Assembly (NCBI GenBank): GCA_043819075.1
Contig: JBDRFE010000020.1
Location: 1 to 14,282, forward strand
Reading direction: 5' to 3'
DNA length: 14,282 nt
DNA from: an archaeon
Lineage (GTDB): Archaea; Iainarchaeota; Iainarchaeia; Iainarchaeales; 1-14-0-10-31-34
The notes beneath the pieces were generated by a model. It searched no databases. It saw only the letters and a program-made list of their open reading frames with translations, and was not told the origin of the DNA. Positions 1 through 14,282 of this stretch are shown piece after piece. The number at the start of each line of letters is the position of its first letter. The first letter of the stretch is position 1. Both the position numbers and the translations under genes were made by a program.

Positions 1-131
1 ATTCTTGTCTGGATTATTCCTTCAAGCAATCCAAGGCTTTCTTCTTTGGATATTTTTTTAACTTCTTTAATGCTTTTCCCTGAAATTTTTTCTGTTTTGT
101 TTAATATAATAAGCGTCACAGAGGATGTCAT
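1..131 (-). CDS. Possible 5' part of a hypothetical protein running off the window edge (MTSSVTLIILNKTEKISGKSIKEVKKISKEESLGLLEGIIQTR...)
   Basis: ATG at 131-129 opens a frame with no stop to position 1. It is divergent from the ABC-F gene. No recognisable motif. Confidence 0.4.
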   Translation of the reverse strand, partial: MTSSVTLIILNKTEKISGKSIKEVKKISKEESLGLLEGIIQTR

Positions 132-209
132 AAAAATATCCCATAATTTTTTAATAAAACCAAATCACTTTTTCATGTTTTAAATGATTTGCATAAATAA
201 TAATTTAAT

Positions 210-1784
210 ATGTCTCTTTCAATAAAAAACATTTCGATTTCCATTGGCAAAAAAGAAATACTACTTGACGAAAGTGTGGGAATTGCAGACGGTTCTAAAG
301 TCGGACTCATTGGCAGAAACGGCGCGGGAAAAACAACGTTTCTCAAAGCAATTTTGGGTCAAATAGATTACACTGGCGAGATTAAATTTACCGGCAAAGC
401 CGCCTATTTTTCACAACACATTGATTTGGATCCACACAAAACTGTGCGCCAAATCATTGAAAAAAGTGCTACAATACATCATCAAAACCAGTTTGAAAAA
501 GAATTACAGGCAATCGAAAAAAAACTTTCAGACCCAGCAATTTATCAAAACAATAAAATACACGTAAGCAAATTATCAGATCGCTACGTGGAATTGCAGT
601 CAAAAATAATTCAACAGCAAACACCCCGTTCAACAAAAATTAAATCAATTTTGCGAACCTTTGAAGTCGAAGAATCCTGGCTTGACCAGCCAATTGAATT
701 ACTTTCCACTGGACAGCGTGCAATTATTGCCATTGTCCAGATTTTATCTTCTGATGCAGATTTATTACTGCTTGACGAACCAACAAATCACCTGGATTTT
801 AAGCGGCTTGAAATTTTAGAAAACTATGTCCGCAAATTTAAAGGAACCATAATAGTAGTCACACACGACAGGTATTTTTTGGACCGCGTATGTGACACAA
901 TAATAAAAATAGAAAAAGGAAAATGGATCAAATACAACAGCAATTATTCAGGATACCTAAAAACCCGTGAAGCTACATTTGAAGCTCAAAAAACAGCTTA
1001 CAACCTTGAAAACAAATACCTTGCAATTGAAAAAGACAAGATTGCGCGCATTGGAAAAAGCCCCCAAAAAGTCAAACAAGGGCAGTACCGTGAAAAATTA
1101 CTTGAAAAACGTGAGATCATTGAAAAACCCGATATGGATCAATCAAAATTCACAACACACTTTGATGCCTCACCAATTCATGAAGGCGTGATTTTAGAAC
1201 TAAAAGACTTAACTGTTGGATACGAAAAACCATTAATTTCTAATATCAACCTAAACATAGGTTCAGAACAGCGAATAATTTTAATCGGAGAAAACGGAAT
1301 GGGTAAAAGCACTTTATTCAAAACTATTGAAGGGCGTATTCCATCCATTTCAGGAAAAGTAATTTTAGATCCACAAGTAAAACTCGGTTACGTAGACCAA
1401 GAACTAAATGACTTAACAACCAACGCCACAGTATATGATGAAATATATTTTTTGCTAAAAGATTTAGCTAAAACGCGCCAGCACTTGACCATGATGGGGT
1501 TTATTGAAAACGACGAAGTGTTCAAACCAATTTCTAAATTATCTATGGGAGAAAAATCCAGGCTTACGCTGCTTAAAATTCTTATTGACAAACCAAACTT
1601 TTTATTGCTTGACGAGCCAACAAACCATTTGGACATTGATGCACGCGAAATAATTGAAAAAGCGTTTCTAAATTATGACGGCGCAATTTTAGCAGTTTCA
1701 CACGACCGTTATTTCATTAAAAAAATTGCACAGCGTGTGCTAAAAGTAAGTGATGAAACACTCAAAGAAGTTTCTGTGAACTAA
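210..1784 (+). CDS. ABC-F family ATP-binding protein (ribosome-associated, EttA/YheS/Uup-like)
   Basis: Two ABC domains (GRNGAGKT, LSTGQ, LLLLDEPTNHLD, VTHDRYFL; GENGMGKS, LSMGE, LLLDEPTNHLD, VSHDRYFI) joined by a helical linker, with no TM segments. TTTAAA at 179-184. Confidence 0.93.
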   Translation: MSLSIKNISISIGKKEILLDESVGIADGSKVGLIGRNGAGKTTFLKAILGQIDYTGEIKFTGKAAYFSQHIDLDPHKTVRQIIEKSATIHHQNQFEKELQAIEKKLSDPAIYQNNKIHVSKLSDRYVELQSKIIQQQTPRSTKIKSILRTFEVEESWLDQPIELLSTGQRAIIAIVQILSSDADLLLLDEPTNHLDFKRLEILENYVRKFKGTIIVVTHDRYFLDRVCDTIIKIEKGKWIKYNSNYSGYLKTREATFEAQKTAYNLENKYLAIEKDKIARIGKSPQKVKQGQYREKLLEKREIIEKPDMDQSKFTTHFDASPIHEGVILELKDLTVGYEKPLISNINLNIGSEQRIILIGENGMGKSTLFKTIEGRIPSISGKVILDPQVKLGYVDQELNDLTTNATVYDEIYFLLKDLAKTRQHLTMMGFIENDEVFKPISKLSMGEKSRLTLLKILIDKPNFLLLDEPTNHLDIDAREIIEKAFLNYDGAILAVSHDRYFIKKIAQRVLKVSDETLKEVSVN

Positions 1785-1798
1785 AACAAAAACAGGCA

Positions 1799-1804
1799 TT
1801 TAAA
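1799..1804 (+). promoter_or_regulatory. TATA box for the C/D box sRNA
   Basis: TTTAAA about 26 nt upstream of the sRNA 5' stem at 1830, the usual archaeal spacing. Confidence 0.55.
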
Positions 1805-1829
1805 TCGTTTATCTTCTATGTTGTCTAAC

Positions 1830-1899
1830 AGGCAATGATGAGGTTAACACCGGCTGATTCCTGAAAAGGAAAATGAAGATTTAACTCAACACTGAGCCT
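1830..1899 (+). ncRNA. Archaeal box C/D 2'-O-methylation guide sRNA (double guide)
   Basis: Terminal stem AGGC(1830-1833)/GCCT(1896-1899); box C ATGATGA 1835-1841; 12-nt guide 1842-1853; box D' CTGA 1854-1857; TTCCT-GAAA-AGGAA hairpin 1858-1871; box C' ATGAAGA 1873-1879; 12-nt guide 1880-1891; box D CTGA 1892-1895. Confidence 0.92.
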
Positions 1900-2010
1900 A
1901 AACCTTTTTTTGAAAAAAAGGTTTAACAAAAAAGCAAACTTTTTTGCAAAAAGTTTGAACAAAAACAAATTTTAATAAAAGTTTGATCAAAAACTTAAAG
2001 GTTCAACAAA
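1899..2010. repeat. Tandem degenerate palindromic AT-rich repeats
   Basis: TAAACC-T7-G-A7-GGTTTA (1899-1925), CAAACTTTTT-TGC-AAAAAGTTTG (1935-1957) and an imperfect third palindrome (1966-1985). Each is followed by a short ..CAAAAA tail. A fourth partial unit lies near 1997-2010. Confidence 0.6.
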
Positions 2011-2031
2011 AGTACGGCATAAAGCCGTACT
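2011..2031 (-). terminator. GC-rich hairpin between convergent transcription units
   Basis: AGTACGGC-ATAAA-GCCGTACT perfect 8-bp stem, 10 nt past the stop of 2042..2362 and followed by TTTG on the minus strand. Confidence 0.5.
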
Positions 2032-2041
2032 GAAAAAAGCT

Positions 2042-2362
2042 TTACCAAAAAAACATAAAACCTGTTGCCGCAGAAATAAAATTCATTGAAAAAGAAACAA
2101 TAAACGAATTTTTCAAAGACTGTTTAAGCAAAAATCTAATTAAAAAAGCTTCAATTACTGCAATTGAAAATTCAAAGAAAAAAAACGCTATTAAATAGTA
2201 ATCAAAAAAAAATGGAAGCAGAATCCACAACAAAGGCAAAGTAAGGGAATTAATTAAAATCAGGAAAAAAACTTTTTCTTTCAAAGGTTTTTTAATTAAA
2301 AAATAAAAAGGAAAAAATTCAATCAAATTAGTTAAAAAAAAAGCAAGAAAAAAAGGATTCAT
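2042..2362 (-). CDS. Small polytopic membrane protein (about 4 TM), hypothetical
   Basis: Very hydrophobic, with intramembrane polar residues (TNLIE, INSLT, E..IAVIE, MNFIS). Overlaps the upstream gene by ATGA (2359-2362). Confidence 0.75.
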   Translation of the reverse strand: MNPFFLAFFLTNLIEFFPFYFLIKKPLKEKVFFLILINSLTLPLLWILLPFFFDYYLIAFFFFEFSIAVIEAFLIRFLLKQSLKNSFIVSFSMNFISAATGFMFFW

Positions 2363-2868
2363 TTTTTCCCTTGTTTTTTCAAGAACTTAACTACAAAAAA
2401 CAATACAACAATAATAATCCCCACAAAAATTAATGGAGGAATTAAGGAAAAAAAATCAAATCTTATGTCATCAGGATTGTTGCTTATCGCTTCTAAAACC
2501 ATTGTTTTTTGTGTTTCATCAAAAGATTTTACTTCAAAAACTGTTTCTCCAGAAGAAAGATTAATTCCTTGAGATACGATACTTTGAGAAGAAACTTGCT
2601 CAAATTCTGATTCAAGAATAATTGAATCTGATGCAAGCTCTAATGGAACTGCATAAACTTTAATATTAGTGTTTAATTTGTAAACAAACTGATTAGATTC
2701 AACTAAAGTTAATTTTTCTGGCCAAATGTTTCCTGCATAATAAAATTTGTATGCAGGATATTCACCTGCATTTCCAATTGAAAAAGAATAATCAGGGCTT
2801 GGCCCAATATCAGCTAAAACTAAAGGAAACAAGAATAAAAGCAATGTAAACAAAATGAAATAACGCAT
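2359..2868 (-). CDS. Secreted protein with signal peptide and C-terminal membrane anchor, hypothetical
   Basis: N-terminal MRYFILFTLLLFLFPLVLA|DIGPSP; C-terminal TM helix followed by a basic tail KFLKKQGKK; TTTAAA at 2890-2895. Confidence 0.8.
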   Translation of the reverse strand: MRYFILFTLLLFLFPLVLADIGPSPDYSFSIGNAGEYPAYKFYYAGNIWPEKLTLVESNQFVYKLNTNIKVYAVPLELASDSIILESEFEQVSSQSIVSQGINLSSGETVFEVKSFDETQKTMVLEAISNNPDDIRFDFFSLIPPLIFVGIIIVVLFFVVKFLKKQGKK

Positions 2869-3050
2869 AACAGTATGAACACTCTTTTGTTTAAATATTT
2901 TACTATAATGAAAGGCAAATCACTTTTTTTGTTTCAGAATGTTTCTTCTTTGAATTTGCTTCTTCTGAAAAATTGGGTTGTTAAAAAAGATATCATTACC
3001 TACAACACTCAATGGTTTTAATGAGGCTAACGCCTGCTTAGAAACAAAAA

Positions 3051-3611
3051 CTAGTCTTCTCTTATTCTGCTGTTTTCAGGCCCGGTTATTCCGAAATATT
3101 TTGCGCCTTTTTTCTTTGAATAAGGTGTTTCACTTGGAGAAGACAGTACATCTAAAGTGAATCTTGCAATTTTTATGCCTGGCCTGATAATAATCGGAAT
3201 AGTTGAAATATTGCTTATCTCTAAAGTTGGGTTTCCTTCAAAGCCCGGGTCAAAAGCAGAAGCAGTTGAATGCACAATCAATCCAATCCTTCCAAGACTG
3301 CTTCTTCCATCCAATCTTCCAGCCAGATGAGACGGGATTTTAATGAATTCTTTTGTTGTTGCAAGAACCAGTTCTCCTGGATGCACAACAAATTTTTCTC
3401 CGTCAGGGATTTCAATTAACTGGGTTAAATTATCCGGAACACCGTCTTTGACATCAATATGGGTTATTTCTGAGTTCTTGAATATCCTGAACTGGTTGCC
3501 TAAATGAAAGTCAACTGACGCACAAGAAATATCGTTTAAGTTTATTCCTTTTATTTCCAGTTCCTTGTTTTTAATCGCTTTTTTTATGTCTCTGTCAGAC
3601 AAAATAGTCAT
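3051..3611 (-). CDS. dcd: dCTP deaminase
   Basis: ILSDRDI N-terminus, ASVDFHLG, GRSSLGRIGL..H.TA..FDPGFEG..TLE motifs, PYS..KY.G tail. Confidence 0.93.
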   Translation of the reverse strand: MTILSDRDIKKAIKNKELEIKGINLNDISCASVDFHLGNQFRIFKNSEITHIDVKDGVPDNLTQLIEIPDGEKFVVHPGELVLATTKEFIKIPSHLAGRLDGRSSLGRIGLIVHSTASAFDPGFEGNPTLEISNISTIPIIIRPGIKIARFTLDVLSSPSETPYSKKKGAKYFGITGPENSRIRED

Positions 3612-3672
3612 AGAAGGAACTTATTTGGAAGCTTTTAAATCCTTTTTGGGTTTTTGTTTTTATTGCATTAAA

Positions 3673-4392
3673 ATGGAATTCAAGTCAAAAATTCTTGGAA
3701 TAGAAAAATGTGCTGATGAAAAAAACTGTTTTCAGATAATGAAATTTGAAAAACCAAAAGATTTTTCTTTTAAGCCAGGGCAGTTCCTAATGATTTCAGC
3801 GGATGATTTCAAATTAAGAGGCAACCCAATGCAATTAAAATGGAGTTCTTTTTCCATTGCAAGCTCTCCTTTTCAGGAGCACCTTGAGTTATGCATTAGG
3901 CTTTTAGACACTGATGGCTTAACAAACCATTTAGGAAAAAAATCCCGGGGAGAAAAAGTAAACTTCAAAGGCCCTTTTGGAAACTTTTTCTTAAACAATG
4001 AATTCAAGGAAATTGCTTTTGTTGCTTTAGGAACAGGAATTGCTCCATTGATTTCAATGATTCGCTCTTTACTGCATCAAAATGATTCAAGGCCTATTAC
4101 CCTGTTTTATGGTTTTAGGAACAGGTGCTGTTTTTTGTATCAAAAGGAATTAACTGACTTGCAGGAAAAACACAAAAACTTTAAATTGAATTTTATTGCA
4201 AGCGACCCTGAACAAGGCTGGAATGCACCAAAAGGCTTTGTCCAGGACTTAATTGAAAAAGCAGTTTTTTCTGTTCCAAAAACCGAAGTTGATTTCTATT
4301 TGTGCGGCCTTCCAAAAATTCTTGACTCAATCAAAGAATTTTTACTAGAAAAAGGCTTTAGCGAAGACAAAATCTTTTATGAAAAATGGTGA
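3673..4392 (+). CDS. Ferredoxin-NADP reductase-like FAD/NAD(P)-binding oxidoreductase
   Basis: FKPGQF, SFSIASSP, KGPFGNF, GTGIAPLISM, LFYGFR, FYLCG.P and terminal EKW. Start moved to ATG 3673 to avoid overlapping dcd. Confidence 0.88.
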   Translation: MEFKSKILGIEKCADEKNCFQIMKFEKPKDFSFKPGQFLMISADDFKLRGNPMQLKWSSFSIASSPFQEHLELCIRLLDTDGLTNHLGKKSRGEKVNFKGPFGNFFLNNEFKEIAFVALGTGIAPLISMIRSLLHQNDSRPITLFYGFRNRCCFLYQKELTDLQEKHKNFKLNFIASDPEQGWNAPKGFVQDLIEKAVFSVPKTEVDFYLCGLPKILDSIKEFLLEKGFSEDKIFYEKW

Positions 4393-4394
4393 CA

Positions 4395-4505
4395 GCCTTT
4401 TCCAAAAGGCAAGTAACGCTTTCGCGCGTTAGTGACGACGCACGGGATAAACCCGTGCTAGCACAACTGAAAGTTGTGCCTCGTTGCTCGCGAGCGAAAT
4501 CGCGA
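4395..4505. other. GC-rich multi-hairpin structured intergenic element (candidate ncRNA or REP-like DNA element)
   Basis: Five hairpins plus a closing stem that forms a three-way junction, between convergent genes in an AT-rich background (see findings). Confidence 0.65.
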
Positions 4506-4507
4506 TT

Positions 4508-4744
4508 TTAATCTTTCCATTTGTGTTCTGGATTCCTTGGAATAATAATCCAGGCAATAACATACAACAGTATTCCTGAACCCCAGACAAAAACTGATGC
4601 AACCCATAAAAGCCTTATTAACACTGGGTCAACTTTCAGGTATTCTGCTATTCCCCCGCAGACTCCGCCCAAAATTTTTTCTTTTCCAGAACGGTAAAGC
4701 CTTTTGAATTCAGGTTCTTCTTTTTTTTCTTTTTTTCCTGCCAC
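4508..4744 (-). CDS. PspC domain-containing membrane protein
   Basis: KRLYRS..EKILGGVCGGIAEYL.VDP.LIRL...TM...LYVIAWIIIP is the PspC signature. GTG at 4744 behind GGGGA is chosen as start because the 4810 start overlaps tdh. Confidence 0.88.
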   Translation of the reverse strand: MAGKKEKKEEPEFKRLYRSGKEKILGGVCGGIAEYLKVDPVLIRLLWVASVFVWGSGILLYVIAWIIIPRNPEHKWKD

Positions 4745-4782
4745 GAATTCTTTCCCCTTTTCTTTTTCTTTTATTCCTGTGC

Positions 4783-5805
4783 CTAAGGGATTAAAACTAT
4801 TTTCCCGCATTTCCCTGTCTTGATTAACTCAAATGCTTTCTCAAATTCTTCTAACTTGAATTTATGCGTTATTATTTTGCTTAAATCAAAGCCTTTTTTT
4901 TGGACTTCAGCAACTTTTTCCCATGACTCAAACAATTTTCTTCCGTTAATTCCTTTGATATTAGCTGACTTGAATACAATGGAATTATTTATGTCGATTG
5001 AAACATCGTTTGGGAACACTCCGAGAATTGCAACATTTCCTCCGCCTCTTAATGATTCAAATCCTGCTTTCAATGAAGCTTCGTGCCCAGAAATTTCAAG
5101 AAAAACGTCTACCCCTCTTGTTGTTTCTTTTAAAAGCACTTCAACCGGATTCTCTTTTTTTGCGTTAATTATTTTTGTTGCGCCAAGTTTTTCAGCCATT
5201 TCCAGCCTAAAAGGATTAACGTCTACTGCAAAAATTTTTTTTGCTCCAATCATTTTGCATAACATTATTGCGCATAATCCAATCGGCCCGCAGCCGAAAA
5301 CTGAAACAGTTTTATCTTTTATTTCCTGTGAAAAAACAGTGTGCACTGCATTGCCTAACGGCTCCTGTGCTGTTGCAATTTCGTGCGGGATTTTTTTGTC
5401 GTTTTTTATTGCATTTTTTTCTGGTATTGCAATATATTCTGCAAAACTACCGTTAGTGTCAACTCCAAGTATTTTCAGGTTTTCGCATATGTGGGCGTTT
5501 CCAATCCTGCATTGAAAGCAGGTAAAATCAGCCAAGTGTGTTTCACCTGAAACATGGTCTCCTATTTCAATGCTTTCAACTAATTCACCTTTTTCAATTA
5601 CTTCTCCTGAAAACTCGTGGCCGAAAATCATCGGAGTCTTGATTCTTGTTTCAGCCCAGTGGTCCCATTCAAAAATATGGACATCTGTTCCGCAGATACT
5701 GCATGCCTTGATTTTAACCAACACATCTTTTGGGCCTATCTGAGGAATATCAGTTTCTTTTAGTTCAGCGCCTTTTTTTGGCTCTGACTTGAATAAAGCC
5801 TTCAT
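4783..5805 (-). CDS. tdh: L-threonine 3-dehydrogenase (Zn-dependent MDR family)
   Basis: SICGTDVHIFEWD.WA, GHEFSG, GETH, QEPLGNAVHT, GCGPIG, GINGR, GKCGKIVL; adjacent to kbl. Start MKAL at 5805 (5817 also possible). Confidence 0.93.
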   Translation of the reverse strand: MKALFKSEPKKGAELKETDIPQIGPKDVLVKIKACSICGTDVHIFEWDHWAETRIKTPMIFGHEFSGEVIEKGELVESIEIGDHVSGETHLADFTCFQCRIGNAHICENLKILGVDTNGSFAEYIAIPEKNAIKNDKKIPHEIATAQEPLGNAVHTVFSQEIKDKTVSVFGCGPIGLCAIMLCKMIGAKKIFAVDVNPFRLEMAEKLGATKIINAKKENPVEVLLKETTRGVDVFLEISGHEASLKAGFESLRGGGNVAILGVFPNDVSIDINNSIVFKSANIKGINGRKLFESWEKVAEVQKKGFDLSKIITHKFKLEEFEKAFELIKTGKCGKIVLIP

Positions 5806-5903
5806 TTTTCCTTCCATAAAATTCACTAGAAATTATTATTAACAATTTTCTTTTTAATAACTATTAATGTTTTTATCTTTATTATGCTTTTGTTAGTGGT
5901 TAA

Positions 5904-7079
5904 ATGAGTGCATCAGATTATTTTAAAAAAGAAGTTGATGAATTAAAGTCAAAAAACCTTGACTGGAAAATCCGTGTTTTGCAGGGAAAATCTGTTCCTC
6001 ACACAAGAATTGACGGAAAAGAAATGCTGATGCTGTGCTCAAACAATTACTTGAATTTAAGCTCTCATCCAAAACTTGTTGAAGCAGCAGTTAATGCAGC
6101 AAAATCTTTTGGTGCAGGAAGCGGTTCTGTGAGAGCAATTGCTGGAACAATGGAATTGCATGTAAAACTGGAAAAAAAAATTTCTGAATTCAAGGAAACA
6201 GAAGATTCTTTGTATTACCAGACTGGTTTTGCCGCTAATGCTGGCTTAATCCCTGCTTTGGCTGGAAAAAATGATTTGATTGTTTCAGATGAATTAAATC
6301 ACGGTAGCATTATTGACGGGGTAAGGCTTTCTAAAGCAGAAAAAAAAGTTTTTTCTCACAGGAATTACGATGAACTAAAAAAAATTTTAGAGGAATCAGA
6401 AAAAAATTTCAATAAAATTCTTGTTGTTTCTGACGGAGTATTCAGCATGGACGGAGACATAGCTGAATTAGATAAAATATCTGGGTTATGCAGAAAACAC
6501 AATGCTTTAAGCTATGTTGATGACGCCCACGGAGACGGTGTACTTGGAAAAGGAAAAGGAATAGTCCATCATTTTAATTTAAAAGGAAAAGTTGACGTTG
6601 AAATGGGCACTTTCAGCAAAGCCTTTGGTGTTGTCGGCGGCTATGTCTGTGGTTCAACTGACTTAAAAGAATTTGCCTTGAATAAAAGCCGTACCTGGCT
6701 TCTTTCTGGGAGCGCGCCTCCAGCAACTGTTGGGGCATGCATTGCCTCACTTGAAGTTGTTCAAAGTGAACCCCAGCATGTAAAAAAGCTCTGGGAAAAC
6801 ACTTTTTACTGGAAAAAACAGCTGAAAAACGCAGGATTTGACACTGGAATAAGCGAGACGCCAATTACTCCTGTAATGTTAGGGGAAAGCAGTACTGCAA
6901 GAAAGTTTTCTGAAAAACTATTGGGTAAAGGAATTTTTGCTTTGCCGATTGTTTTTCCAATGGTTGCAGAAGGCAAAGCAAGAATCAGGTCAATGATGAA
7001 CTCTGGCTTAACCAAAGAAGACCTTGATTTTGCCTTGGAAAAGTTTTCTGAAACAGGCAAAGAACTAAAATTAATCTGA
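5904..7079 (+). CDS. kbl: Glycine C-acetyltransferase (2-amino-3-ketobutyrate CoA ligase), PLP-dependent alpha-oxoamine synthase family
   Basis: CSNNYLNL, GSVRAIAGT, SDELNHGSIIDG, DGVFSMDGD, VDDAHG, GTFSKAFG (PLP lysine), ARIR. The neighbouring tdh favours Kbl over BioF. Confidence 0.88.
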   Translation: MSASDYFKKEVDELKSKNLDWKIRVLQGKSVPHTRIDGKEMLMLCSNNYLNLSSHPKLVEAAVNAAKSFGAGSGSVRAIAGTMELHVKLEKKISEFKETEDSLYYQTGFAANAGLIPALAGKNDLIVSDELNHGSIIDGVRLSKAEKKVFSHRNYDELKKILEESEKNFNKILVVSDGVFSMDGDIAELDKISGLCRKHNALSYVDDAHGDGVLGKGKGIVHHFNLKGKVDVEMGTFSKAFGVVGGYVCGSTDLKEFALNKSRTWLLSGSAPPATVGACIASLEVVQSEPQHVKKLWENTFYWKKQLKNAGFDTGISETPITPVMLGESSTARKFSEKLLGKGIFALPIVFPMVAEGKARIRSMMNSGLTKEDLDFALEKFSETGKELKLI

Positions 7080-7258
7080 TTCAGCGTTTTTTGCCATGCA
7101 ATATGTTTTTAATCCTTGTTTTGCACAAATATGTTTGTCTGTTGTTTGAACAGCAGATTATAAAAAAATGGGAAATACTGATTTTTTTTAATTTATTTAA
7201 ATTGAATTTTTTTTGTATTGCTTATTTTTTTATAAACAGTTTTAGATGGAGGAATGTA

Positions 7259-7441
7259 ATGCCATTCAATAAAGGAAACAAAGGTTTCGAAGGCAACAAG
7301 GGCTTTGACAGACAAATGTTCAAAGTAACTTGTGCTGAATGCGGTGTGGAAACAGAAGTTCCGTTTAAGCCAGACGGAAAAAGACCTGTTTATTGCAGGG
7401 ATTGTTACCAGAACCACAAACCACAAAAAAGATTCGATTAA
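7259..7441 (+). CDS. CxxC-x17-CxxC domain small zinc-ribbon protein (60 aa)
   Basis: RQMFKVTCAECGVETEVPFKPDGKRPVYCRDCY; GGAGG at 7248-7252 and TTTATAAA near 7229-7236 support the start at 7259. Confidence 0.9.
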   Translation: MPFNKGNKGFEGNKGFDRQMFKVTCAECGVETEVPFKPDGKRPVYCRDCYQNHKPQKRFD

Positions 7442-7468
7442 ATAAAACACTGTTTTTTGTAACTGAAT

Positions 7469-7512
7469 CTTTTTAATTTATTTTTATTCTTTTTTTTTGT
7501 TTTTTTATTTTA
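7469..7512 (+). terminator. Oligo-T tract between convergent genes (archaeal-type terminator)
   Basis: Long T runs immediately downstream of the CxxC-x17-CxxC gene. Confidence 0.45.
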
Positions 7513-7516
7513 ATTC

Positions 7517-7906
7517 TTATTCAGGAACGTGCACAAAAGATAAAACTATTTTTAATCCTTCAGCTGCTGTTCCTTTAACAAAAGTCATTGTATTTTTTTC
7601 GTTCTGGAAAACCAAATGCATGTTCCCAAACAATTCGTTGTTTTTTCCTTTTAATTCGTATTGCCCTGAAGCATTCAATACATTTGCCAAAAGAATTTCT
7701 TTTGACTTGAATCTTGAGCCAAGCATGAAATTAACACAACAATTATTTATTTTTCCCTGAATGGCTTTCAATACAGCTTTATTGATTTTATTTTGAATCA
7801 TTCCTTCCCTGATTGATTCAAGCAAGTTTTCGCCTTCAGATAACTCTAAAGTAAGGTCTTTTTGAATCCCTTTTTTGTTAAAAAACTGTGAATCTCCTGC
7901 CTTCAT
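7517..7906 (-). CDS. PPC/DUF296-like domain protein
   Basis: LELSEGENLLESI...I..A.L..IQGKI ... EIL....SG ... NMHLVF ... GT pattern resembles the PPC fold but is divergent. TTTAAA at 7931-7936. Confidence 0.6.
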   Translation of the reverse strand: MKAGDSQFFNKKGIQKDLTLELSEGENLLESIREGMIQNKINKAVLKAIQGKINNCCVNFMLGSRFKSKEILLANVLNASGQYELKGKNNELFGNMHLVFQNEKNTMTFVKGTAAEGLKIVLSFVHVPE

Positions 7907-8126
7907 ATCTTATTCATTCCCAGCTAAAGATTTAAAAAACTTCATTAAGTTTTTTCCGGTTTCTGTTTTGTTGATCGCTTTAAAAGCATTGCTGTTTACA
8001 AATTATTTATTAAAAAAAAGAAAGGCAGAATAACTCTATTTTTTTCTTAAATGAAAACTTTGCTTTTTGGCGCACTAAATGCGTTAAACAGAATGGCGTT
8101 ATTTTTCTATTTCTTTTAAAGGAGAT

Positions 8127-9233
8127 TTGATATACTTGAATTTTAACGAACTAAACTTAAACGACAGCATAAAGCATGCATTGCAAAAAAAAGGTTTTGT
8201 GAATGTATCTGAAATACAGAAAAAAGTTATTCCCTCAGCTTTAGAGGGAAAAGACTTGGTGGGAAAATCAAAGACAGGCACAGGAAAAACTGCTGCTTTT
8301 GCTATTCCTTTAATCCAAAAAATAGGTGAAAAAAAGGGTTCAGCTTTAATTGTTGTTCCGACAAGAGAGCTTGCCTTGCAGGTGAAAGAAGAAATTGCTT
8401 CAATTGCAGTTAACACTAATGTAAGGACAATAGCTGTTTTTGGCGGGCAAAACATTAAAAGGCAGATTGAATTGCTTTCAAGAAAACCTGAAATAGTTGT
8501 CGGCACTCCAGGAAGATTGCTTGACTTGATTTCAAGAAAAGTTCTTTTTCTTGGCAGAACAGGATTTCTTGTTTTGGATGAAGCAGACAAAATGTTTGAC
8601 ATGGGTTTCAGGGATGATGTGGAAAAAATTATTTCTTTTCTTCCAAAAGAAAGGCAGACAATGCTTTTTTCTGCTACCATGCCGCATGAAATAATGTATT
8701 TGATTGAAAGGCATTTAAAGCGCGATAAAATTGTTTTTGATTTAAGCACAGACAATGCGCCGGTGCAGGAAATAGAACAGTTTTATGTAATGGTTGATGA
8801 AAGGCAGAAAATTAATGCATTGCACAGGATTTTAGCCAACGATGATTCAAAGACACTTGTTTTTTGCAGGACTAAAAGAACTGTTGACTGGCTTGAAAGA
8901 AAGTTTGCAGGAATGGGAGTAAGAATTCTTGCAATTCACGGAGACAAGCCCCAGAACACAAGAAACAAAATCATTGAAGACTTCAAGCGTTCAAGAAACG
9001 CTGTTTTGGTTGCAACAGACGTTGTTTCAAGAGGAATTCATGTGAATGACATAGACAATGTAGTTAACTTTGATTTCCCAAAAGAAACTGAAGCATACTT
9101 GCATAGAATTGGAAGGACTGCAAGGCAGGGAAGAACAGGCAAAGCAATAAGCTTTTGCGCTAACTTAATGGAACTTGATTCGCTTGAAAAAGTGGGTTCA
9201 AGAAACAATACAGTAATACAGCAATTGCAGTGA
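8127..9233 (+). CDS. DEAD-box RNA helicase (core only)
   Basis: Q motif, SKTGTGKT, PTRELA, GG, TPGRLLD, DEAD, SAT, HGD, TDVVSRGI, HRIGRTAR. Start is TTG 8127 or 8136 behind GGAG (8121-8124). Confidence 0.95.
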   Translation: MIYLNFNELNLNDSIKHALQKKGFVNVSEIQKKVIPSALEGKDLVGKSKTGTGKTAAFAIPLIQKIGEKKGSALIVVPTRELALQVKEEIASIAVNTNVRTIAVFGGQNIKRQIELLSRKPEIVVGTPGRLLDLISRKVLFLGRTGFLVLDEADKMFDMGFRDDVEKIISFLPKERQTMLFSATMPHEIMYLIERHLKRDKIVFDLSTDNAPVQEIEQFYVMVDERQKINALHRILANDDSKTLVFCRTKRTVDWLERKFAGMGVRILAIHGDKPQNTRNKIIEDFKRSRNAVLVATDVVSRGIHVNDIDNVVNFDFPKETEAYLHRIGRTARQGRTGKAISFCANLMELDSLEKVGSRNNTVIQQLQ

Positions 9234-9238
9234 AAATT

Positions 9239-9808
9239 TTAACTCCATCTGCAGTAGTAATTCCAGTCCCGGCATTCAAAGTCTTCTGGTTTTCCACTGC
9301 ATTCAGTTTCTTTTTCAGGGCATTCGTCCATCAAGTCATTGAAAGAAAAAGCTTTTTCCCCAAGCTTGTATGTTATCAGCCTTCCAATTTCTTGTTTAAC
9401 TTTTTCAAACTGTTCCTGAGAGTAATTAACTAAGGTAACTGTTTTTCTTTCCCCGTTTGCTTTAATGCTTATTTTTGTGAATCCTCCATCCATTACAAAA
9501 GGGTCTTCATAGTTTTCATTTAAAGAAAAAAAGCTGTTTAATACAACTGCATCAAAAATTTTTTTTCTTTCTGATTCGCTTACAGTGAACTCGTATTTTT
9601 TTGTTAAGCTTGTTTCAATTGTTTTTTCAAACACTGCATTTCCTTTGCTGTCAATTTTAAGTTCATAGTGACCCCACTCTAAATGTGTTGCTCCGCTGCT
9701 GTATTCGACTTCAAAGTCTTCTGGAAGATTTTTTGGGGGCTCTGGCGGCTGGAAAAGGCAGCCAAAAAAGAGGACAAGCAAAACCAGAACAAAAGCAATT
9801 TTTTTCAT
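9239..9808 (-). CDS. Putative lipoprotein with Cys-rich C-terminus
   Basis: MKK-hydrophobic-LFFGC lipobox-like signal, Pro-rich linker, L.IDSKG...Y.DP.VMDGG core, four C-terminal Cys. Confidence 0.8.
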   Translation of the reverse strand: MKKIAFVLVLLVLFFGCLFQPPEPPKNLPEDFEVEYSSGATHLEWGHYELKIDSKGNAVFEKTIETSLTKKYEFTVSESERKKIFDAVVLNSFFSLNENYEDPFVMDGGFTKISIKANGERKTVTLVNYSQEQFEKVKQEIGRLITYKLGEKAFSFNDLMDECPEKETECSGKPEDFECRDWNYYCRWS

Positions 9809-10117
9809 CTGATTAAATTAAGTCTTTCTGGTATTTAATTTTTTCTTCTGTTTTTATTAATTTGATGCAGTCCAAAAGCAAAAACATTTTTTGTTGCGCA
9901 AGCCAAGAAATCCAAACAAGCCTCTTATTAGGGACGTCTTTACATATATATGTCATGGAATCAACTGATTTTTTGGGGAAAAAATAATGGACAGCCAGTT
10001 TACTAGAATGAGGAACAGGTCGCTTGCTTTTTCTCCTGAAAAACGTAAAAAAGAGGACCGCAAGAACAGCCTTCTCTTAAGATCAATTTCAATCTGATTT
10101 TAGGTTATTGAAAAAAT

Positions 10118-10135
10118 TTCCGCCTCTTGGGTTTG
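10118..10135 (-). repeat. Degenerate tRNA 3'-end copy (att-like), most distal
   Basis: TTCCGCCTCTTGGGTTTG, 14/18 identical to 14265-14282. Confidence 0.7.
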
Positions 10136-10148
10136 CACAGGAAACTCT

Positions 10149-10277
10149 TTATAATTCTGCTAATTCATTATAGAATGCTTTGTATTTTTTTAGATCTTCT
10201 TCGACTATTTTTTTTATGTCTTTCCATTCTGCCATTGTTATTGGCTCTCTTTTTCCTTTGATTTTTATTTTTTTCAT
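10149..10277 (-). CDS. 42-aa putative antitoxin for the Doc toxin (absent from the ORF track)
   Basis: Hand-translated MKKIKIKGKREPITMAEWKDIKKIVEEDLKKYKAFYNELAEL*. ATG is 4 nt after the doc stop. Amphipathic helical C-terminus. Confidence 0.72.
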   Translation of the reverse strand: MKKIKIKGKREPITMAEWKDIKKIVEEDLKKYKAFYNELAEL

Positions 10278-10281
10278 TTTA

Positions 10282-10644
10282 TCAGCCCTTTCTTGTGTGG
10301 TTTGCAATCCATGTAACTATTTCGTCTAATCGTGTTTTTGGTTTTACTGACCACACCACTACATTAAATCTTGATGTTTCGCCAACCTTTAATTCTTTTC
10401 CATTCAACTTCAAGAAGGCAGTCATTGCCTGAAATGCTGTTCTTTTGTTTCCGTCTGCAAAAGCGTGCCTTCTTGCAATATCCATTAGTAAAGTTGCTGC
10501 CTTTCTGTCTATTCCTCTTGTGTTTGCCACCTTGAAAACAATATGGTCTAAATCTCCTTCGTTTCTAATTATTCCTTTGTCAAATTTTTTGTTTATTTCG
10601 ATTATTGCTTCTTTTGAAAGTGTTTTTGCATAAATCCTTGCCAT
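10282..10644 (-). CDS. doc: Doc/Fic family (death-on-curing) toxin
   Basis: HAFADGNKRTA Doc motif, GIIRNEGDL, KAA.LL..I. Start MARIY at 10644 lies about 25 nt below a TTTAAA box. Confidence 0.9.
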   Translation of the reverse strand: MARIYAKTLSKEAIIEINKKFDKGIIRNEGDLDHIVFKVANTRGIDRKAATLLMDIARRHAFADGNKRTAFQAMTAFLKLNGKELKVGETSRFNVVVWSVKPKTRLDEIVTWIANHTRKG

Positions 10645-10647
10645 GCA

Positions 10648-10672
10648 TAAATTCTGTAAATTACAGAATTTA
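10648..10672. promoter_or_regulatory. Perfect 12-bp inverted repeat (operator) over the doc promoter
   Basis: TAAATTCTGTAA-A-TTACAGAATTTA overlapping TTTAAA (10669-10674). Confidence 0.7.
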
Positions 10673-10702
10673 AACATATTGTTTTTCAGCTAAAAATAGG
10701 GT

Positions 10703-10720
10703 TCCCGTCTCCTGGATTTG
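10703..10720 (-). repeat. Degenerate tRNA 3'-end copy (att-like)
   Basis: TCCCGTCTCCTGGATTTG, 16/18 identical to 14265-14282. Confidence 0.85.
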
Positions 10721-10767
10721 AGAAAAGGTTCTTGGTTTGGGGTTGGAAGTGTGGAGTTTTTCACATC

Positions 10768-11049
10768 TTATCTCCTGTACATATCATCGTGATGGCCAAA
10801 TTTATCAAACATGATGAAATTTTTTTCTTTGAATACTTTAAAAAAGAGCACAAAGCTTTTTGCTACGTGAACTCTTTTGTATTCTTTTAAATCATATTGC
10901 ATATTTTTGTAATGGTCAATTGTTATCTCATCTGAATTAGCTATTTGCTTGATCTTTTTATTAAGTATTTCCACGGTCTTTTTGTCTTTTTTTGCCAGCA
11001 CTCTGATTGTGGCTTTCAATTCATCTGAAAGGTCAAATGAAAAAGGCAT
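10768..11049 (-). CDS. RelE/YafQ-superfamily type II toxin
   Basis: 93 aa, basic; HYKNM.YDLKEYKRVHV.KSFVL.F....FGHHDDMY; abuts the upstream antitoxin (TGA ATG). Confidence 0.85.
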   Translation of the reverse strand: MPFSFDLSDELKATIRVLAKKDKKTVEILNKKIKQIANSDEITIDHYKNMQYDLKEYKRVHVAKSFVLFFKVFKEKNFIMFDKFGHHDDMYRR

Positions 11050-11313
11050 TCATTCGCCTCTGCATAGCTTGTCTAATTCTTTTATGCTCATTTTTCTGAA
11101 GCCGTATTTCTTGATATGTCTGTCACAAGATTCAATCACTTCTCTGATTACCTCTTCTTTGACTTCTTTATCAACAAATTCGTCTCCATACATTTCAGCA
11201 AACTTGTCTAATGCCTCTCCTTTGTCATTTAACCCATATTTTTCCTTAACCACACCAAGCACTCTGCTTGTATAATCATCTATTTTAACATTTATAGAAA
11301 CAGTTTTGCCCAT
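11050..11313 (-). CDS. Antitoxin with N-terminal ribbon-helix-helix-like domain (DUF2683-like)
   Basis: VSINVKIDDYTSRVLGVVKEKYGLNDKGEALDKF then an acidic segment; AGGTGA RBS at 11320-11325; directly upstream of the RelE-like toxin. Confidence 0.8.
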   Translation of the reverse strand: MGKTVSINVKIDDYTSRVLGVVKEKYGLNDKGEALDKFAEMYGDEFVDKEVKEEVIREVIESCDRHIKKYGFRKMSIKELDKLCRGE

Positions 11314-11332
11314 ATAACTTCACCTAATATAG

Positions 11333-11355
11333 AATTAGTTAAACTAATTTATAAA
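11333..11355 (-). promoter_or_regulatory. Inverted-repeat operator plus TATA box of the antitoxin-RelE operon
   Basis: AATTAGTT-A-AACTAATT (11333-11349) abutting TTTATAAA (11348-11355). Confidence 0.65.
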
Positions 11356-11391
11356 CCTTGCCGTCCAGCGTTCCTTTTTCTGAAGAAAAAT

Positions 11392-11409
11392 TCCCGCCTC
11401 AAGGATTTG
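11392..11409 (-). repeat. Degenerate tRNA 3'-end copy (att-like)
   Basis: TCCCGCCTCAAGGATTTG, 16/18 identical to 14265-14282. Confidence 0.85.
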
Positions 11410-11451
11410 CAATTGGGTTGTGGGAGGTTGGATGTTTGAGGTTTGGAGTTT

Positions 11452-11802
11452 TCAGAGTTCATATAATTCCTTTATTTTTTGTTTTACTTCTTTGAGTTTT
11501 TGTTTTGAAATTTTTCCAATTTTGGTTTCTATTAGTTTCTTATAAACTGTTACTGGGTTGTCGGTCATTATTTGGCTTTCAGTTTTTAGTTGTCCATTTT
11601 CTAAATCTTTTGAAGTTAGTAAAACATCGTATTTTGTTTTGCTTCCTCTGGAGGTTATCTTAAACAAGATTAAGTCATCAGATTCTCTGTTAAATTTTGA
11701 ATTGCTTATAACTAATGCAGGTCTTCTTTTCACTCCAATTTGTTCCGAGAACATTAGGTCAGCTACAACAAGGTCTCCTTGTTCAAAATTCAAAGAGTTC
11801 AT
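11452..11802 (-). CDS. mazF: MazF/PemK family endoribonuclease toxin
   Basis: [14 protein letters not shown]....[27 protein letters not shown]. Confidence 0.9.
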
Positions 11803-11986
11803 GTGCGTCTTCTCCTTCTTCTGCCCATCTCTTGTAAGCGTAAAGTCTTAATGGGTCTTTTTCTGATTCAAGCAACTTGGCTTTTTCTTCTATTGCTTTT
11901 CTTGCTATTTCAGTCCACTTAATTTCAGAATGCTTTTTCATAATGTCATGAAGTTCTTTTGGAACAGCCATAGTCATATTAACCAT
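11783..11986 (-). CDS. Ribbon-helix-helix antitoxin
   Basis: [35 protein letters not shown] pattern with an acidic C-terminus; overlaps the mazF start by 20 nt; AAGGTGG RBS near 11991-11997. Confidence 0.82.
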
Positions 11987-12054
11987 TTAACCACCTTAAA
12001 TAAGTAAAATAAGTAAAGTTGTTAAAGTTATCTTTCACTTGGCGTGATTGGAAT

Positions 12055-12102
12055 TCCCGCCTCCCAACACCGTTCTACGGGTGCAAGTCCCGCCGATTTT
12101 TG
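12055..12102 (-). repeat. Split/duplicated degenerate tRNA 3'-end copies (att-like)
   Basis: TCCCGCCTCCC (12055-12065, 11/11 match to 14265-14275) and TCCCGCC-GATTT (12088-12099). Confidence 0.7.
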
Positions 12103-12122
12103 GTAAAATGCTTCTTTTTTTT

Positions 12123-14198
12123 CTATCTGATTTCCTCAAAAGGAGAGGCATACTTTTCAGGTTTGTTTTCTAATAAGTGGATATATTTAATGCCCCCTTC
12201 AGTCTGAAAGTCAATTATTGCTGCCCAATAAAGATCCCTCATTTTTTCTGGGTTTACTCCATATTCACCTTTGTTTAGTTCTTTTTCAAGGTAAATAATG
12301 TAGCCATAGCCATCTATTTTTTCCCACCTGATTTTATTATCTATTTCTTTGTATTCATTGCCTATTTTTTCCATAATAGTCGCTTGGTTCAAGTCTTTTG
12401 GCAATATATTGCTTGGATTTATTACCATTGTATCATTGTTAATAATGTTGACGGATTCGATTGATGGCTGTGGCATGACTATCACCGGGCATACAGAAAC
12501 AAAGCTGTTTTCTATGTAGTAAAAATTGTCTGCAAAAGCAGTTGAAAATTTTTTTGAAAGTAGGTGTTCTCCTTTTATTATTGATAATTCGTTTTCTTTT
12601 TTTAGTTCTATATTCTCTCCACTTGCAGTTAAAAGATATAAATCGTCTTTTAACTTTGCCAATCGGATTATTTCGAGTTCTTTATCATTCATTTTCGCCT
12701 TCACATCTTCTTTGTTTAATTCAAAATTTGAGTGCAAATAAATGTTCAAGGGATAATTTTCTTTGATTGGCAGCGCGCCCTCAAAGGATAATTGCTCAAA
12801 GCCTGTGCTGGAGGAAAGAATGTCATCTCCATGATAATCAAAAGAAAGATTAGAATTTTTGTCTCTGACAAAGAATTCATCTGTTATGCCTTTTGTTGAG
12901 AAGTTGAGGTCATAAGTATATTTTTCTGTTATAATGTCTTTTGACATTTTGCTTCCTTGTAAATTAGCTTCTATCGGATAGCCATTTGCGAGCAATGACA
13001 TTTCTTTCAAATTTAGCTCTTTATCTGTTTCAATTGTTAGCACAGGATAGAATGTTCCCTTGCATCCTAAATATTCTCTGTCAATTTCAAAATTTACTTT
13101 TTTGATTTCAAGTGATGCTGGGGCTTCTTTGTCAGGCGTGATACATCCTGCAAGAGCCACAGTTGCTCCAAGCGCTCCAATTGCAGTAAAAGTGACGATT
13201 TTTGAGAACAAAGACGGTTTCTTTTCAGCTATTTCTTTGCATTCTCTGTTTCCTGCATAAAATGAGCCATAGTTCAAAATAGCTCTTGCTCTACAACCGC
13301 CTCCACACCATTCGACTGCTTCACATTTTTTACACGGTTCTCCAAGCTTTGCATAATCAAATTTTCTAAAACTGTCAAAAAGATTGCTGTTCCAAACAGC
13401 AGAAATTTTTGTTTTTCTGATGTTTCTTACAGAATAAGGAAAAGAAATACATGGTTTTATTTCGCCGTCTGCAGCAACACACAAATGCGACCTGCCGGCA
13501 GTGCATTCAAAGTGGTCATTGTAAGGGCCAAATCCATCATCCAAGAATATTTTTGTTTTGGAATCTTTGTTTTCATTGCTATATTCAATTAAATCAACAA
13601 CATTGTCCAAATCCAGTTTTACGTTGTTTTCTTTTGCCCTTCCACTGTTTTGTGGGAGATATAAATTGAGCCTGTCAAACTCGTTTTCTACGCACATTTG
13701 ATGGGTTATTTCTACTGTTTCAGAATTAGAGTTGCAAACCATCATTGAAGTGCAAGTGATGATTCCATTTTCTCTAAAAAGCTTTAGCGCATTAATTGCT
13801 TTTTCGAATGATTCTCCTCTGTTTAAGTCGTGGCATTCTTTTGTTCCGTCAATGCTGATGGAAACTGCTTTCAAACCACAGGAAGAAAGTTTTTTCGCTA
13901 TCTCTCCTGTTACCAGAGAGCCGTTGGTTATTAGAGTTGTATTCAAGCCAAGAGAATCAGCATGTTTTATTATTTCAAATATATCCTTTCTTGCTAAAGG
14001 TTCTCCGCCAGTAATTGAAAAAAACAAGGCGCCTAAAGAGGCAACATCCTCTAACATTTCTTTAACTTCTGAGGTTGTCAGTTCGTTGCACAGTTTCTTG
14101 CCAGAATTTGAACCGCAATGTTTGCAGTTTAGATTACACTGCCTTGTACTCTCCCATACAAAATGTTTCAGAATATGGGTTTCATTGTAATCAATCAT
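12123..14198 (-). CDS. Radical SAM/SPASM enzyme fused to an internal lipoprotein-signal-like TM segment and a large C-terminal domain of unknown function
   Basis: CNLNCKHC, TGGEP, ITNG, SISIDG; SPASM CTAG...C...DGEIKPC...CKKC....CGGGCRARA...C; then KK..SKIVTFTAIGALGATVALAGC (Cys352) and about 340 further aa. Confidence 0.88.
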   Translation of the reverse strand: MIDYNETHILKHFVWESTRQCNLNCKHCGSNSGKKLCNELTTSEVKEMLEDVASLGALFFSITGGEPLARKDIFEIIKHADSLGLNTTLITNGSLVTGEIAKKLSSCGLKAVSISIDGTKECHDLNRGESFEKAINALKLFRENGIITCTSMMVCNSNSETVEITHQMCVENEFDRLNLYLPQNSGRAKENNVKLDLDNVVDLIEYSNENKDSKTKIFLDDGFGPYNDHFECTAGRSHLCVAADGEIKPCISFPYSVRNIRKTKISAVWNSNLFDSFRKFDYAKLGEPCKKCEAVEWCGGGCRARAILNYGSFYAGNRECKEIAEKKPSLFSKIVTFTAIGALGATVALAGCITPDKEAPASLEIKKVNFEIDREYLGCKGTFYPVLTIETDKELNLKEMSLLANGYPIEANLQGSKMSKDIITEKYTYDLNFSTKGITDEFFVRDKNSNLSFDYHGDDILSSSTGFEQLSFEGALPIKENYPLNIYLHSNFELNKEDVKAKMNDKELEIIRLAKLKDDLYLLTASGENIELKKENELSIIKGEHLLSKKFSTAFADNFYYIENSFVSVCPVIVMPQPSIESVNIINNDTMVINPSNILPKDLNQATIMEKIGNEYKEIDNKIRWEKIDGYGYIIYLEKELNKGEYGVNPEKMRDLYWAAIIDFQTEGGIKYIHLLENKPEKYASPFEEIR

Positions 14199-14264
14199 AA
14201 ATCTATAGTAAGCTTAAGTCATTAAAAAATATTACATTATTCAATGACTTTTGTTATGTATATA

Positions 14265-14282
14265 TCCCGCCTCCCGGATTTG
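14265..14282 (-). tRNA. 3' end of a tRNA (probably tRNA-Tyr) truncated by the window edge, or a perfect att copy of it
   Basis: Minus strand reads CAAAT-CCGGG-AGGCGGG-A, i.e. end of the T loop, 3' T stem, 3' acceptor strand and discriminator A. G72/A73 (implying C1:G72) is the archaeal Tyr identity. No encoded CCA. The anticodon is not visible. Confidence 0.62.

Follow-up and report, generated by a model that had tools for sequence, protein, structure and literature searches.

Four cassettes bounded by copies of a tRNA-Tyr 3′ end

The sequence analysed here (the window) is the whole of contig C20, 14,282 bp long (GenBank JBDRFE010000020.1), from the archaeal genome G000 of the order Iainarchaeales, which comprises 1.24 Mb in 75 contigs with 34% G+C. 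Its right-hand part, from position 10118 to the contig end, is an array of four small gene cassettes, most of them predicted toxin–antitoxin (TA) modules, set apart by copies of the 3′ end of a tyrosine tRNA gene. Listed from the tRNA-proximal end, the features of the array are:

14265..14282, minus strand: proximal core, the exact last 18 nt of tRNA-Tyr (T-loop CAAAT onward); the contig end cuts this copy
12123..14198, minus strand: cassette 1 cargo, a 691-aa open reading frame (ORF) with a Radical_SAM plus SPASM match at residues 16-293
12055..12100, minus strand: type B boundary, a conserved element of ~46 nt with the consensus AAAACCGGCGGGAGTTGCACCCGTAGAGCAGTGTTGGGAGGCGGGA
12036..12054, minus strand: proximal arm of the MazEF cassette, with the motif AATCACGCC at 12041-12049
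11783..11986, minus strand: putative MazF antitoxin, 67 aa, no Pfam match
11452..11802, minus strand: MazF/PemK toxin, 116 aa (PF02452, E 1.3e-18)
11410..11451, minus strand: distal arm of the MazEF cassette, C/A-rich, with the arm motif at 11426-11441
11392..11409, minus strand: core copy, 16/18 match
11050..11313, minus strand: putative antitoxin of the RelE-like toxin, 87 aa, no Pfam match
10768..11049, minus strand: RelE/YhaV-like toxin, 93 aa (weak match to PF11663, E 0.0058)
10721..10767, minus strand: distal arm of the RelE cassette, C/A-rich, with the arm motif at 10727-10742
10703..10720, minus strand: core copy, 16/18 match
10282..10644, minus strand: Doc (Fic-fold) toxin, ~120 aa from a conserved ATG (PF02661, E 6.6e-8)
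10149..10277, minus strand: conserved 42-aa ORF right after Doc; homology between Doc cassettes stops at its stop codon
10118..10148, minus strand: distal terminus of the array, formed by a degenerate tRNA-Tyr 3′ end with 14/18 matches in the core

The 18-nt core, TCCCGCCTCCCGGATTTG, occurs at 14265 without mismatch and at 11392 and 10703 with two mismatches each, where 200 shuffles of the window gave an expectation of zero at up to three mismatches. Further copies lie at 10118 (four mismatches) and 12055 (11/11 nt). All five share one orientation, and the intervals from repeat to repeat are 2210, 663, 689 and 585 bp. A preliminary description of this DNA had reported this recurrence and named tRNA-Tyr as its anchor. 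Our pattern search with shuffles reproduced the positions, intervals and orientation, and the 18-mer proved to be the exact 3′ end of tRNA-Tyr(GTA) at G000:C30:14770-14931, on another contig of the same genome. The genome-wide scan proposed there, at up to four mismatches, returned two matches outside the window, namely this tRNA gene and one site on contig C73 whose flank bears no likeness to a tRNA. Among the 45 tRNAs of the genome, tRNA-Tyr alone has clustered non-tRNA copies of its own 3′ end.

Each repeat spans the region from inside the T-loop (TGCAAAT) through the 3′ strands of the T-stem and the acceptor stem to the discriminator. At the distal end (10118..10148) the likeness extends further, into the 5′ strand of the T-stem, for ~31 nt in total. 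The core at 11392 is followed by a T-rich stretch, from 11391 to about 11345, that also trails tRNA-Tyr itself in the related genomes G002 and G005. ARAGORN predicted no tRNA in the window, an Rfam search covering 9000-14282 (E ≤ 1) yielded two snoRNA-like chance matches and nothing else, and a search of IMG/VR with the exact 18-mer gave no match and hence no free element there. The tRNA-Tyr gene on C30 carries a 90-nt intron at position 37/38, and its T-loop has a G in place of the usual second T of TTC; among relatives the intron measures 41-136 nt, and it is absent in genus g33.

Cargo of the cassettes

Each of the four intervals contains one module on the same strand as the tRNA, an arrangement noted in the preliminary description and borne out by the ORFs and Pfam matches. 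The MazF, RelE-like and Doc modules have the composition of type II TA systems: a toxin domain, a small adjacent partner and an operator of their own, in the form of upstream palindromes or tandem repeats. The 67-aa ORF is preceded by a conserved tandem repeat, TACTTATTT TACTTATTT, and then AGGTG; the 87-aa ORF is preceded by the palindrome AATTAGTT-T-AACTAATT and Doc by the palindrome TTCTGTAA-T-TTACAGAA. The match of the RelE/YhaV-like toxin to its Pfam family is better in its homologue from G006 (E 3.6e-5). The conserved 42-aa ORF after Doc is likely to encode an antitoxin or regulator. A RelE module 74% identical to that of the window was also seen at locus L025 (G011:C18, ~8713-8840), directly 3′ of an intron-bearing tRNA-Thr(CGT) predicted by ARAGORN; the same cargo therefore sits at other tRNAs too.

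The first cassette differs in its cargo. The radical SAM part of the 691-aa ORF, of cytoplasmic type, runs in frame into a seemingly complete lipoprotein-like signal (LAGC) followed by ~330 residues. Around 13140-13215 the ORF has an internal TTG and a hydrophobic stretch leading to LAGC, and the tail beyond has no Pfam match; the ORF may represent a true fusion or a misreading of two separate genes. A DNA-level search of 40 relatives for the body of this ORF returned a single 50-nt match, in G017, and no other relative.

Boundary types and arms

The cassettes are flanked by more than the core alone. A C/A-rich arm with the motif CCACAAACCACNWACC lies upstream of the type A cores. Four matches to this motif occur in the window against 0.39 expected, two in the distal arms of the RelE and MazEF cassettes and two outside the array. 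The motif adjoins cores in 16 of 60 loci, and an exact copy is present in the far-end arm of an integrase-bearing element in G007, described below. The two off-array matches, at 7414-7429 (plus strand) and 7958-7973 (minus strand), have two and three mismatches, lie in or near small ORFs and are probably due to chance. On the other side of the cargo, the proximal-arm motif AATCACGCC is present in 13 exact copies across 507 kb of loci; in eight cases the copy falls within 30 nt 3′ of a core and precedes differing cargo. Units thus bounded keep both arms and carry no integrase gene, as expected of non-autonomous units that retain their att ends.

The type B boundary resembles the tRNA only in its last 11 nt (12055-12065), GGGAGGCGGGA, and can be read as a tRNA end broken after CCGG by an insert of ~28 nt. 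We collected 19 distinct copies from 10 genomes; they share no consensus fold (0 consensus pairs in 19 copies). A search of genome contigs with a degenerate type B pattern gave two loci, matching G062:C8 and G002:C5, and no new integrase partner. In G008 (L016, G008:C20; 4400-5150 and 10100-10900) Doc and RelE modules are flanked by yet another boundary, which resembles the tRNA-Tyr end, AAATCCAGG ... GGACGCGGGA, broken at the same place as type B by a different GC-rich insert of ~28 nt.

Several other readings of the boundaries were considered and rejected. The four boundaries of the window fold no better than shuffled sequence on either strand (z from -0.15 to +1.27), and the idea that they are attC-like was dropped. 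A CGGG/CCCG hairpin in type B failed, since its outer pairs are not kept and there is no consensus structure. A likeness to retroelement primer-binding sites was rejected, as the copies on the cargo strand read in the same sense as the tRNA and have no CCA.

Arrays in related genomes

The tRNA-Tyr end was found in 137 of the 151 genomes of the order, many of which have same-strand clusters with a spacing of 0.56-1 kb; a reversed-pattern control gave 0-2 matches per genome. Counting core to core in the window and 22 relatives yielded 62 units, with cores picked by eye, so that hidden boundaries may divide some of them further. By length, 26 units are at most 750 bp, 20 are 751-1300 bp, 14 are 1301-4000 bp and two exceed 4 kb. 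Only those two largest units contain an integrase gene. MazEF, HicAB, Doc, RelE/ParE-like and PIN modules and ~310-aa Fic proteins dominate the cargo, and methyltransferases, an AAA_14 ATPase and unknowns are present as well. In five genomes (G096, G065, G147, G121 and G123) a lone unit of 561-697 bp lies between tRNA-Tyr and a repeat copy, which matches at 18/18 positions in four of them and is one base off in G121.

The array repeats of genus g33 (L047, L048 and L049, from G099, G118 and G130) reach ~45-50 nt back, to the anticodon-arm region, which suggests that the elements of this genus may use another crossover place in the tRNA.

Whole units differ between genomes and between strains

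The MazEF unit, compared from core to core with arms and operator included, is 87-88% identical to units in G121, G062 and G089, members of another family, and 71-74.5% identical to MazEF units of its own genus. The gene for the DEAD helicase that flanks the array is 78-82% identical within the genus and 72-74% identical between families; identity across families is thus higher for this unit than for a core gene. The proximal and distal neighbours of the MazEF unit differ in all three genomes. The Doc unit recurs in G002 with 92% identity, at another position and with other boundaries (type B on both sides), in an array that reads lipoprotein, RelE, Doc, MazEF, HicAB, tRNA.

Closer comparisons came from public groundwater metagenome runs in which the window sequence occurs (X3 and X5), examined as assembled contigs; one of the runs may be the source sample. 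A 2547-nt contig from X3, 97-99% identical to the window (four differences over 1137 nt and 17 over 667 nt), joins 10136 to 10734 and lacks the Doc unit. A second X3 contig has Doc, then a type B boundary, proximal of RelE. In a third, the RelE unit (from the 11392 core) runs straight into a genuine tRNA-Tyr. The distal-end type of 10118..10148 also adjoins the RelE cassette in one contig of this run. A contig from X5 joins 11359 to 12052, leaving out the MazEF unit, with a shorter side of only 45 nt. As the 18-nt cores are shorter than the words used by the assembler, false joins across cores are unlikely. A further joint, 12609 to 10203, falls in A/T-rich sequence and was set aside.

Gain, loss and reordering of units exactly at the repeats, anticipated in the preliminary description, are therefore seen both among relatives and among near-identical strains. 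Its suggestion that the array grows in a polar fashion does not hold strictly, since Doc lies distal of RelE in the window and proximal of it in G002 and in the 97-99% identical strain.

Integrases at the same tRNA gene

On contig C30, 149 bp separate tRNA-Tyr from the start of an ORF whose N-terminal domain is of the integrase SAM-like type; the contig end cuts this ORF. The tRNA gene is preceded there by a PAP2 gene with 74.5% amino-acid identity to its counterpart in G002. The order in relatives is PAP2, tRNA-Tyr, a variable array, and then a DUF6438 lipoprotein gene and/or a DEAD helicase gene; this synteny implies that the end of C30 joins the right end of the window. On this arrangement the integrase element would either lie between C30 and the window or form part of a co-assembled strain. 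No homologues of the body of the G007 element were detected in the genome bin beyond the integrase start and tRNA on C30.

Homologues of the C30 fragment were present in 26 of the 61 genomes searched, and in each of the eight loci examined the homologue immediately follows a tRNA gene (Tyr, Asn, Glu or Cys). In G007, tRNA-Tyr is followed by an integrase gene (79% identity to the C30 fragment; PF00589, E 1e-24) that heads an 11.3-kb element closed by a far-end repeat. A direct repeat of 26 nt, of which the tRNA end is part, bounds this element, and a MazEF unit follows on the far side of the element. In G062, tRNA-Tyr is followed by a 431-aa integrase (PF00589) in an 8.4-kb unit and then by five small units. 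Among 20 loci picked regardless of integrase content, three (C30, G007 and G062) have an integrase beside tRNA-Tyr. The C30 gene and the intact homologues heading 8-11 kb elements in G007 and G062 mark the locus as an ordinary integrase target.

A single complete tyrosine recombinase was found in the bin, XerA on contig C2, which scores 273 bits (cut-off 220). No IntI was found in the genome (integron-integrase models scored 30-205 bits against cut-offs of 265 and 435), and split integrase fragments of the SSV type were absent from 28 loci searched by tblastn with nine integrases, the matches being the G007 and G062 genes only. The array had been described as integrase-less, with the advice to look for an adjacent or distant tyrosine recombinase. 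That label fits the cassettes themselves and fails for the locus, which has an integrase gene directly 3′ of tRNA-Tyr on C30.

A probable accretion array of miniature elements

We consider that the region is probably an array grown by accretion at the tRNA-Tyr 3′ end, made of miniature, non-autonomous integrative elements that are served by the integrases of larger elements. The array would build by site-specific recombination of the tyrosine-recombinase type at the T-loop and T-stem of the tRNA gene. Each unit consists of a short proximal arm, its own promoter and operator, one cargo module and a C/A-rich distal arm ending in a tRNA 3′ end. Units of this kind, with no recombinase gene, would be moved in trans by the integrases of the 8-11 kb elements at the same tRNA or, alternatively, be carried in cis within a composite that includes an integrase element. 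The arms on both sides of the cargo, the exact copy of CCACAAACCACNWACC in an integrase element at the same site and the unit-by-unit variation between strains all point this way. We infer that the integrase family represented on C30 and in G007 and G062 acts on the small units, that circular intermediates form and that units pass between cells.

Several observations weigh against this explanation. The integrase on C30 is incomplete, the rest of its element is absent from the genome bin, and this gene could come from a different strain of the population. The integrase elements have proximal arms (TTACACCGG in G007, TTATACCGAC in G000) that are unlike the cassette arm (AATCACGCCG) beyond TTACAC, and none of the integrase-bearing elements found has a type B boundary, though type B is the commonest boundary of the family. 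The junctions in X3 are not simple recombinants of the window's boundaries, from which 15 nt differ. The evidence for rearrangement consists of contigs, in which whole-unit variants appear but no circles; recombination itself was not observed. Relatives also have TA modules, 69-79% identical, that are not in arrays of this kind, so part of the similarity between units could reflect conserved TA genes.

A bolder form of the proposal, which we regard as doubtful, would make the ~0.6-kb “minimal integrative elements” a self-propagating family and not debris, each comprising two att arms and a TA pair or some other single gene and parasitising tRNA-specific integrases as miniature inverted-repeat transposable elements do transposases. 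The tRNA would then act as the anchor of a capture platform across this order of DPANN archaea, with site dialects (types A, B and C) that share an 11-nt crossover, and type B might be served by another recombinase, possibly that of the host. Should the units indeed be mobile at 0.6 kb, no smaller site-specific integrative elements would be known to us. TA genes would thereby have a concrete route to spread and accumulate in genome-reduced archaea, which have few others for exchanging genes. For groundwater populations, the tRNA-Tyr locus also provides a convenient marker of variation between strains.

Other explanations

The units could instead be remnants in place, left when successive large integrase elements eroded down to addictive TA modules, in which case nothing small ever moved. 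TA modules resist loss through post-segregational killing, and this resistance favours the idea, as does the use of the tRNA-Tyr site by large integrase elements. Decay of integrated elements to integrase-less units has been described in the accounts given in PMC5704250 and PMC8371274. Erosion nevertheless looks unlikely to us. The 28 loci searched by tblastn held no integrase fragments, and the MazEF unit recurs from core to core, with an identical arm-to-promoter junction, across families and positions. Single units of 561-697 bp at tRNA-Tyr in five genomes, and whole-unit differences between near-identical strains, are likewise hard to derive from decay. The G007 element, moreover, shows no TA module at its end by the far-end repeat, where Pfam matches are weak or absent.

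A hotspot without a dedicated integrase, at which homologous or microhomology recombination or the host XerA shuffles units while the integrase elements are bystanders, strikes us as improbable. It would accommodate XerA as the sole complete tyrosine recombinase found in the genome, and also the type B and other boundaries, whose likeness to the tRNA is limited to 11 nt and for which no integrase partner was found; it is least improbable for type B. An identity of 11-18 nt is, however, short for homologous recombination, the boundaries are unlike a palindromic dif-type site, and conserved arms on two sides suit arm-binding integrases, whereas exchange driven by homology would leave them unexplained.

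A true integron or integron-like platform, in which a resident integrase captures promoterless cassettes via folded attC-like sites, would account for a one-orientation, mostly single-module, TA-rich array shuffled between strains, but it is contradicted on its defining features and can be excluded as having next to no probability: there is no IntI, with models far below their cut-offs, neither the eight boundary strands nor the 19 type B copies show the required structure, the cassettes bear their own promoter and operator sequences, and the main text of the archaeal integron paper PMC9668308 contains no occurrence of “tRNA”. The preliminary proposal that tRNA-end repeats stand in for attC in an integron-like system gives way accordingly to classical att-type repeats with arms.

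Comparison with known systems

Accretion of this kind is known from bacteria, as tandem accretion, cis-mobilisable elements (CIMEs) and the ssrA islands of Dehalococcoides. CIMEs, described with ICESt1 and ICESt3 of Streptococcus (PMC5704250), are units without integration genes that keep both att ends, are stacked at the 3′ end of a target gene beside integrase-bearing elements and can be moved with or by them. Because the units described here keep both arms and no enzyme, they fit that definition. Unlike known CIMEs, they are reduced to one TA pair, recur as a family and are found in more than one archaeal family. CIMEs are decayed integrative and conjugative elements of several kb, whereas here single TA modules of 0.56-0.7 kb form a recognisable family across DPANN archaeal families, without conjugation machinery and with at least two boundary types on one crossover segment. 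The present analysis adds motifs in the arms of both flanks, an integrase element that uses the same tRNA gene, and variation at the level of strains.

The Dehalococcoides islands (PMC3146451) are also serial, with direct repeats of ~20 bp that copy a t(m)RNA 3′ end, insertion in the T-loop and a conserved motif beside the repeat; some lack an integration module and were proposed to be cis-mobilisable, and that paper describes their integrase, dsiB, as homologous to ccrB. Those islands are bacterial, measure several kb and carry rdhA, whereas our units are about ten times smaller and rich in TA modules. We take ccrB to be a serine recombinase; the enzymes at the archaeal locus are tyrosine recombinases.

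In the tycheposon islands of Prochlorococcus (bioRxiv 10.1101/2020.12.28.424599), tRNA-anchored growth through repeated integration similarly pushes older elements inwards and leaves partial tRNAs and degenerate elements. Tycheposons encode an integrase themselves, and in many cases replication genes; the passages of that preprint considered here describe no small integrase-less units with conserved arms. Integrons, including archaeal ones (PMC9668308), share small one-orientation cassettes, TA cassettes, shuffling and clusters of attC sites lacking integron integrases (CALINs) that are served in trans, and differ in having IntI, folded attC and attI, where the array has copies of a tRNA 3′ end with arms of the double-stranded type.

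In archaeal integrated elements, too, tyrosine integrases target tRNA genes, and both tandem integration and later loss of the integrase can occur (PMC8371274, PMC6563490); the smallest cryptic integrated element given in PMC6563490 is 2.6 kb and includes an integrase. Unlike elements of the SSV type, the units in the 28 loci lack flanking split integrase fragments. A literature search, with supplements outside its scope, found no paper on archaeal TA cassettes that lack an integrase and are delimited by tRNA ends.

The flank of the array

Beyond the distal end, the window continues into conserved chromosomal sequence:

9239..10097, no strand assigned: conserved chromosomal flank, containing the 36-aa ORF and the DUF6438 lipoprotein gene
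9987-10097, plus strand: basic ORF of 36 aa (MDSQFTRMRNR...), preceded by a TATA-like region that is conserved
9239-9808, minus strand: DUF6438 lipoprotein, a flank gene
8127-9233: DEAD-box helicase, a flank gene

The remainder, positions 1-9233, holds ordinary housekeeping genes. The 36-aa ORF has counterparts with 69-73% DNA identity beside the arrays of G001, G003, G004 and G007, and in G003 it lies between array units.

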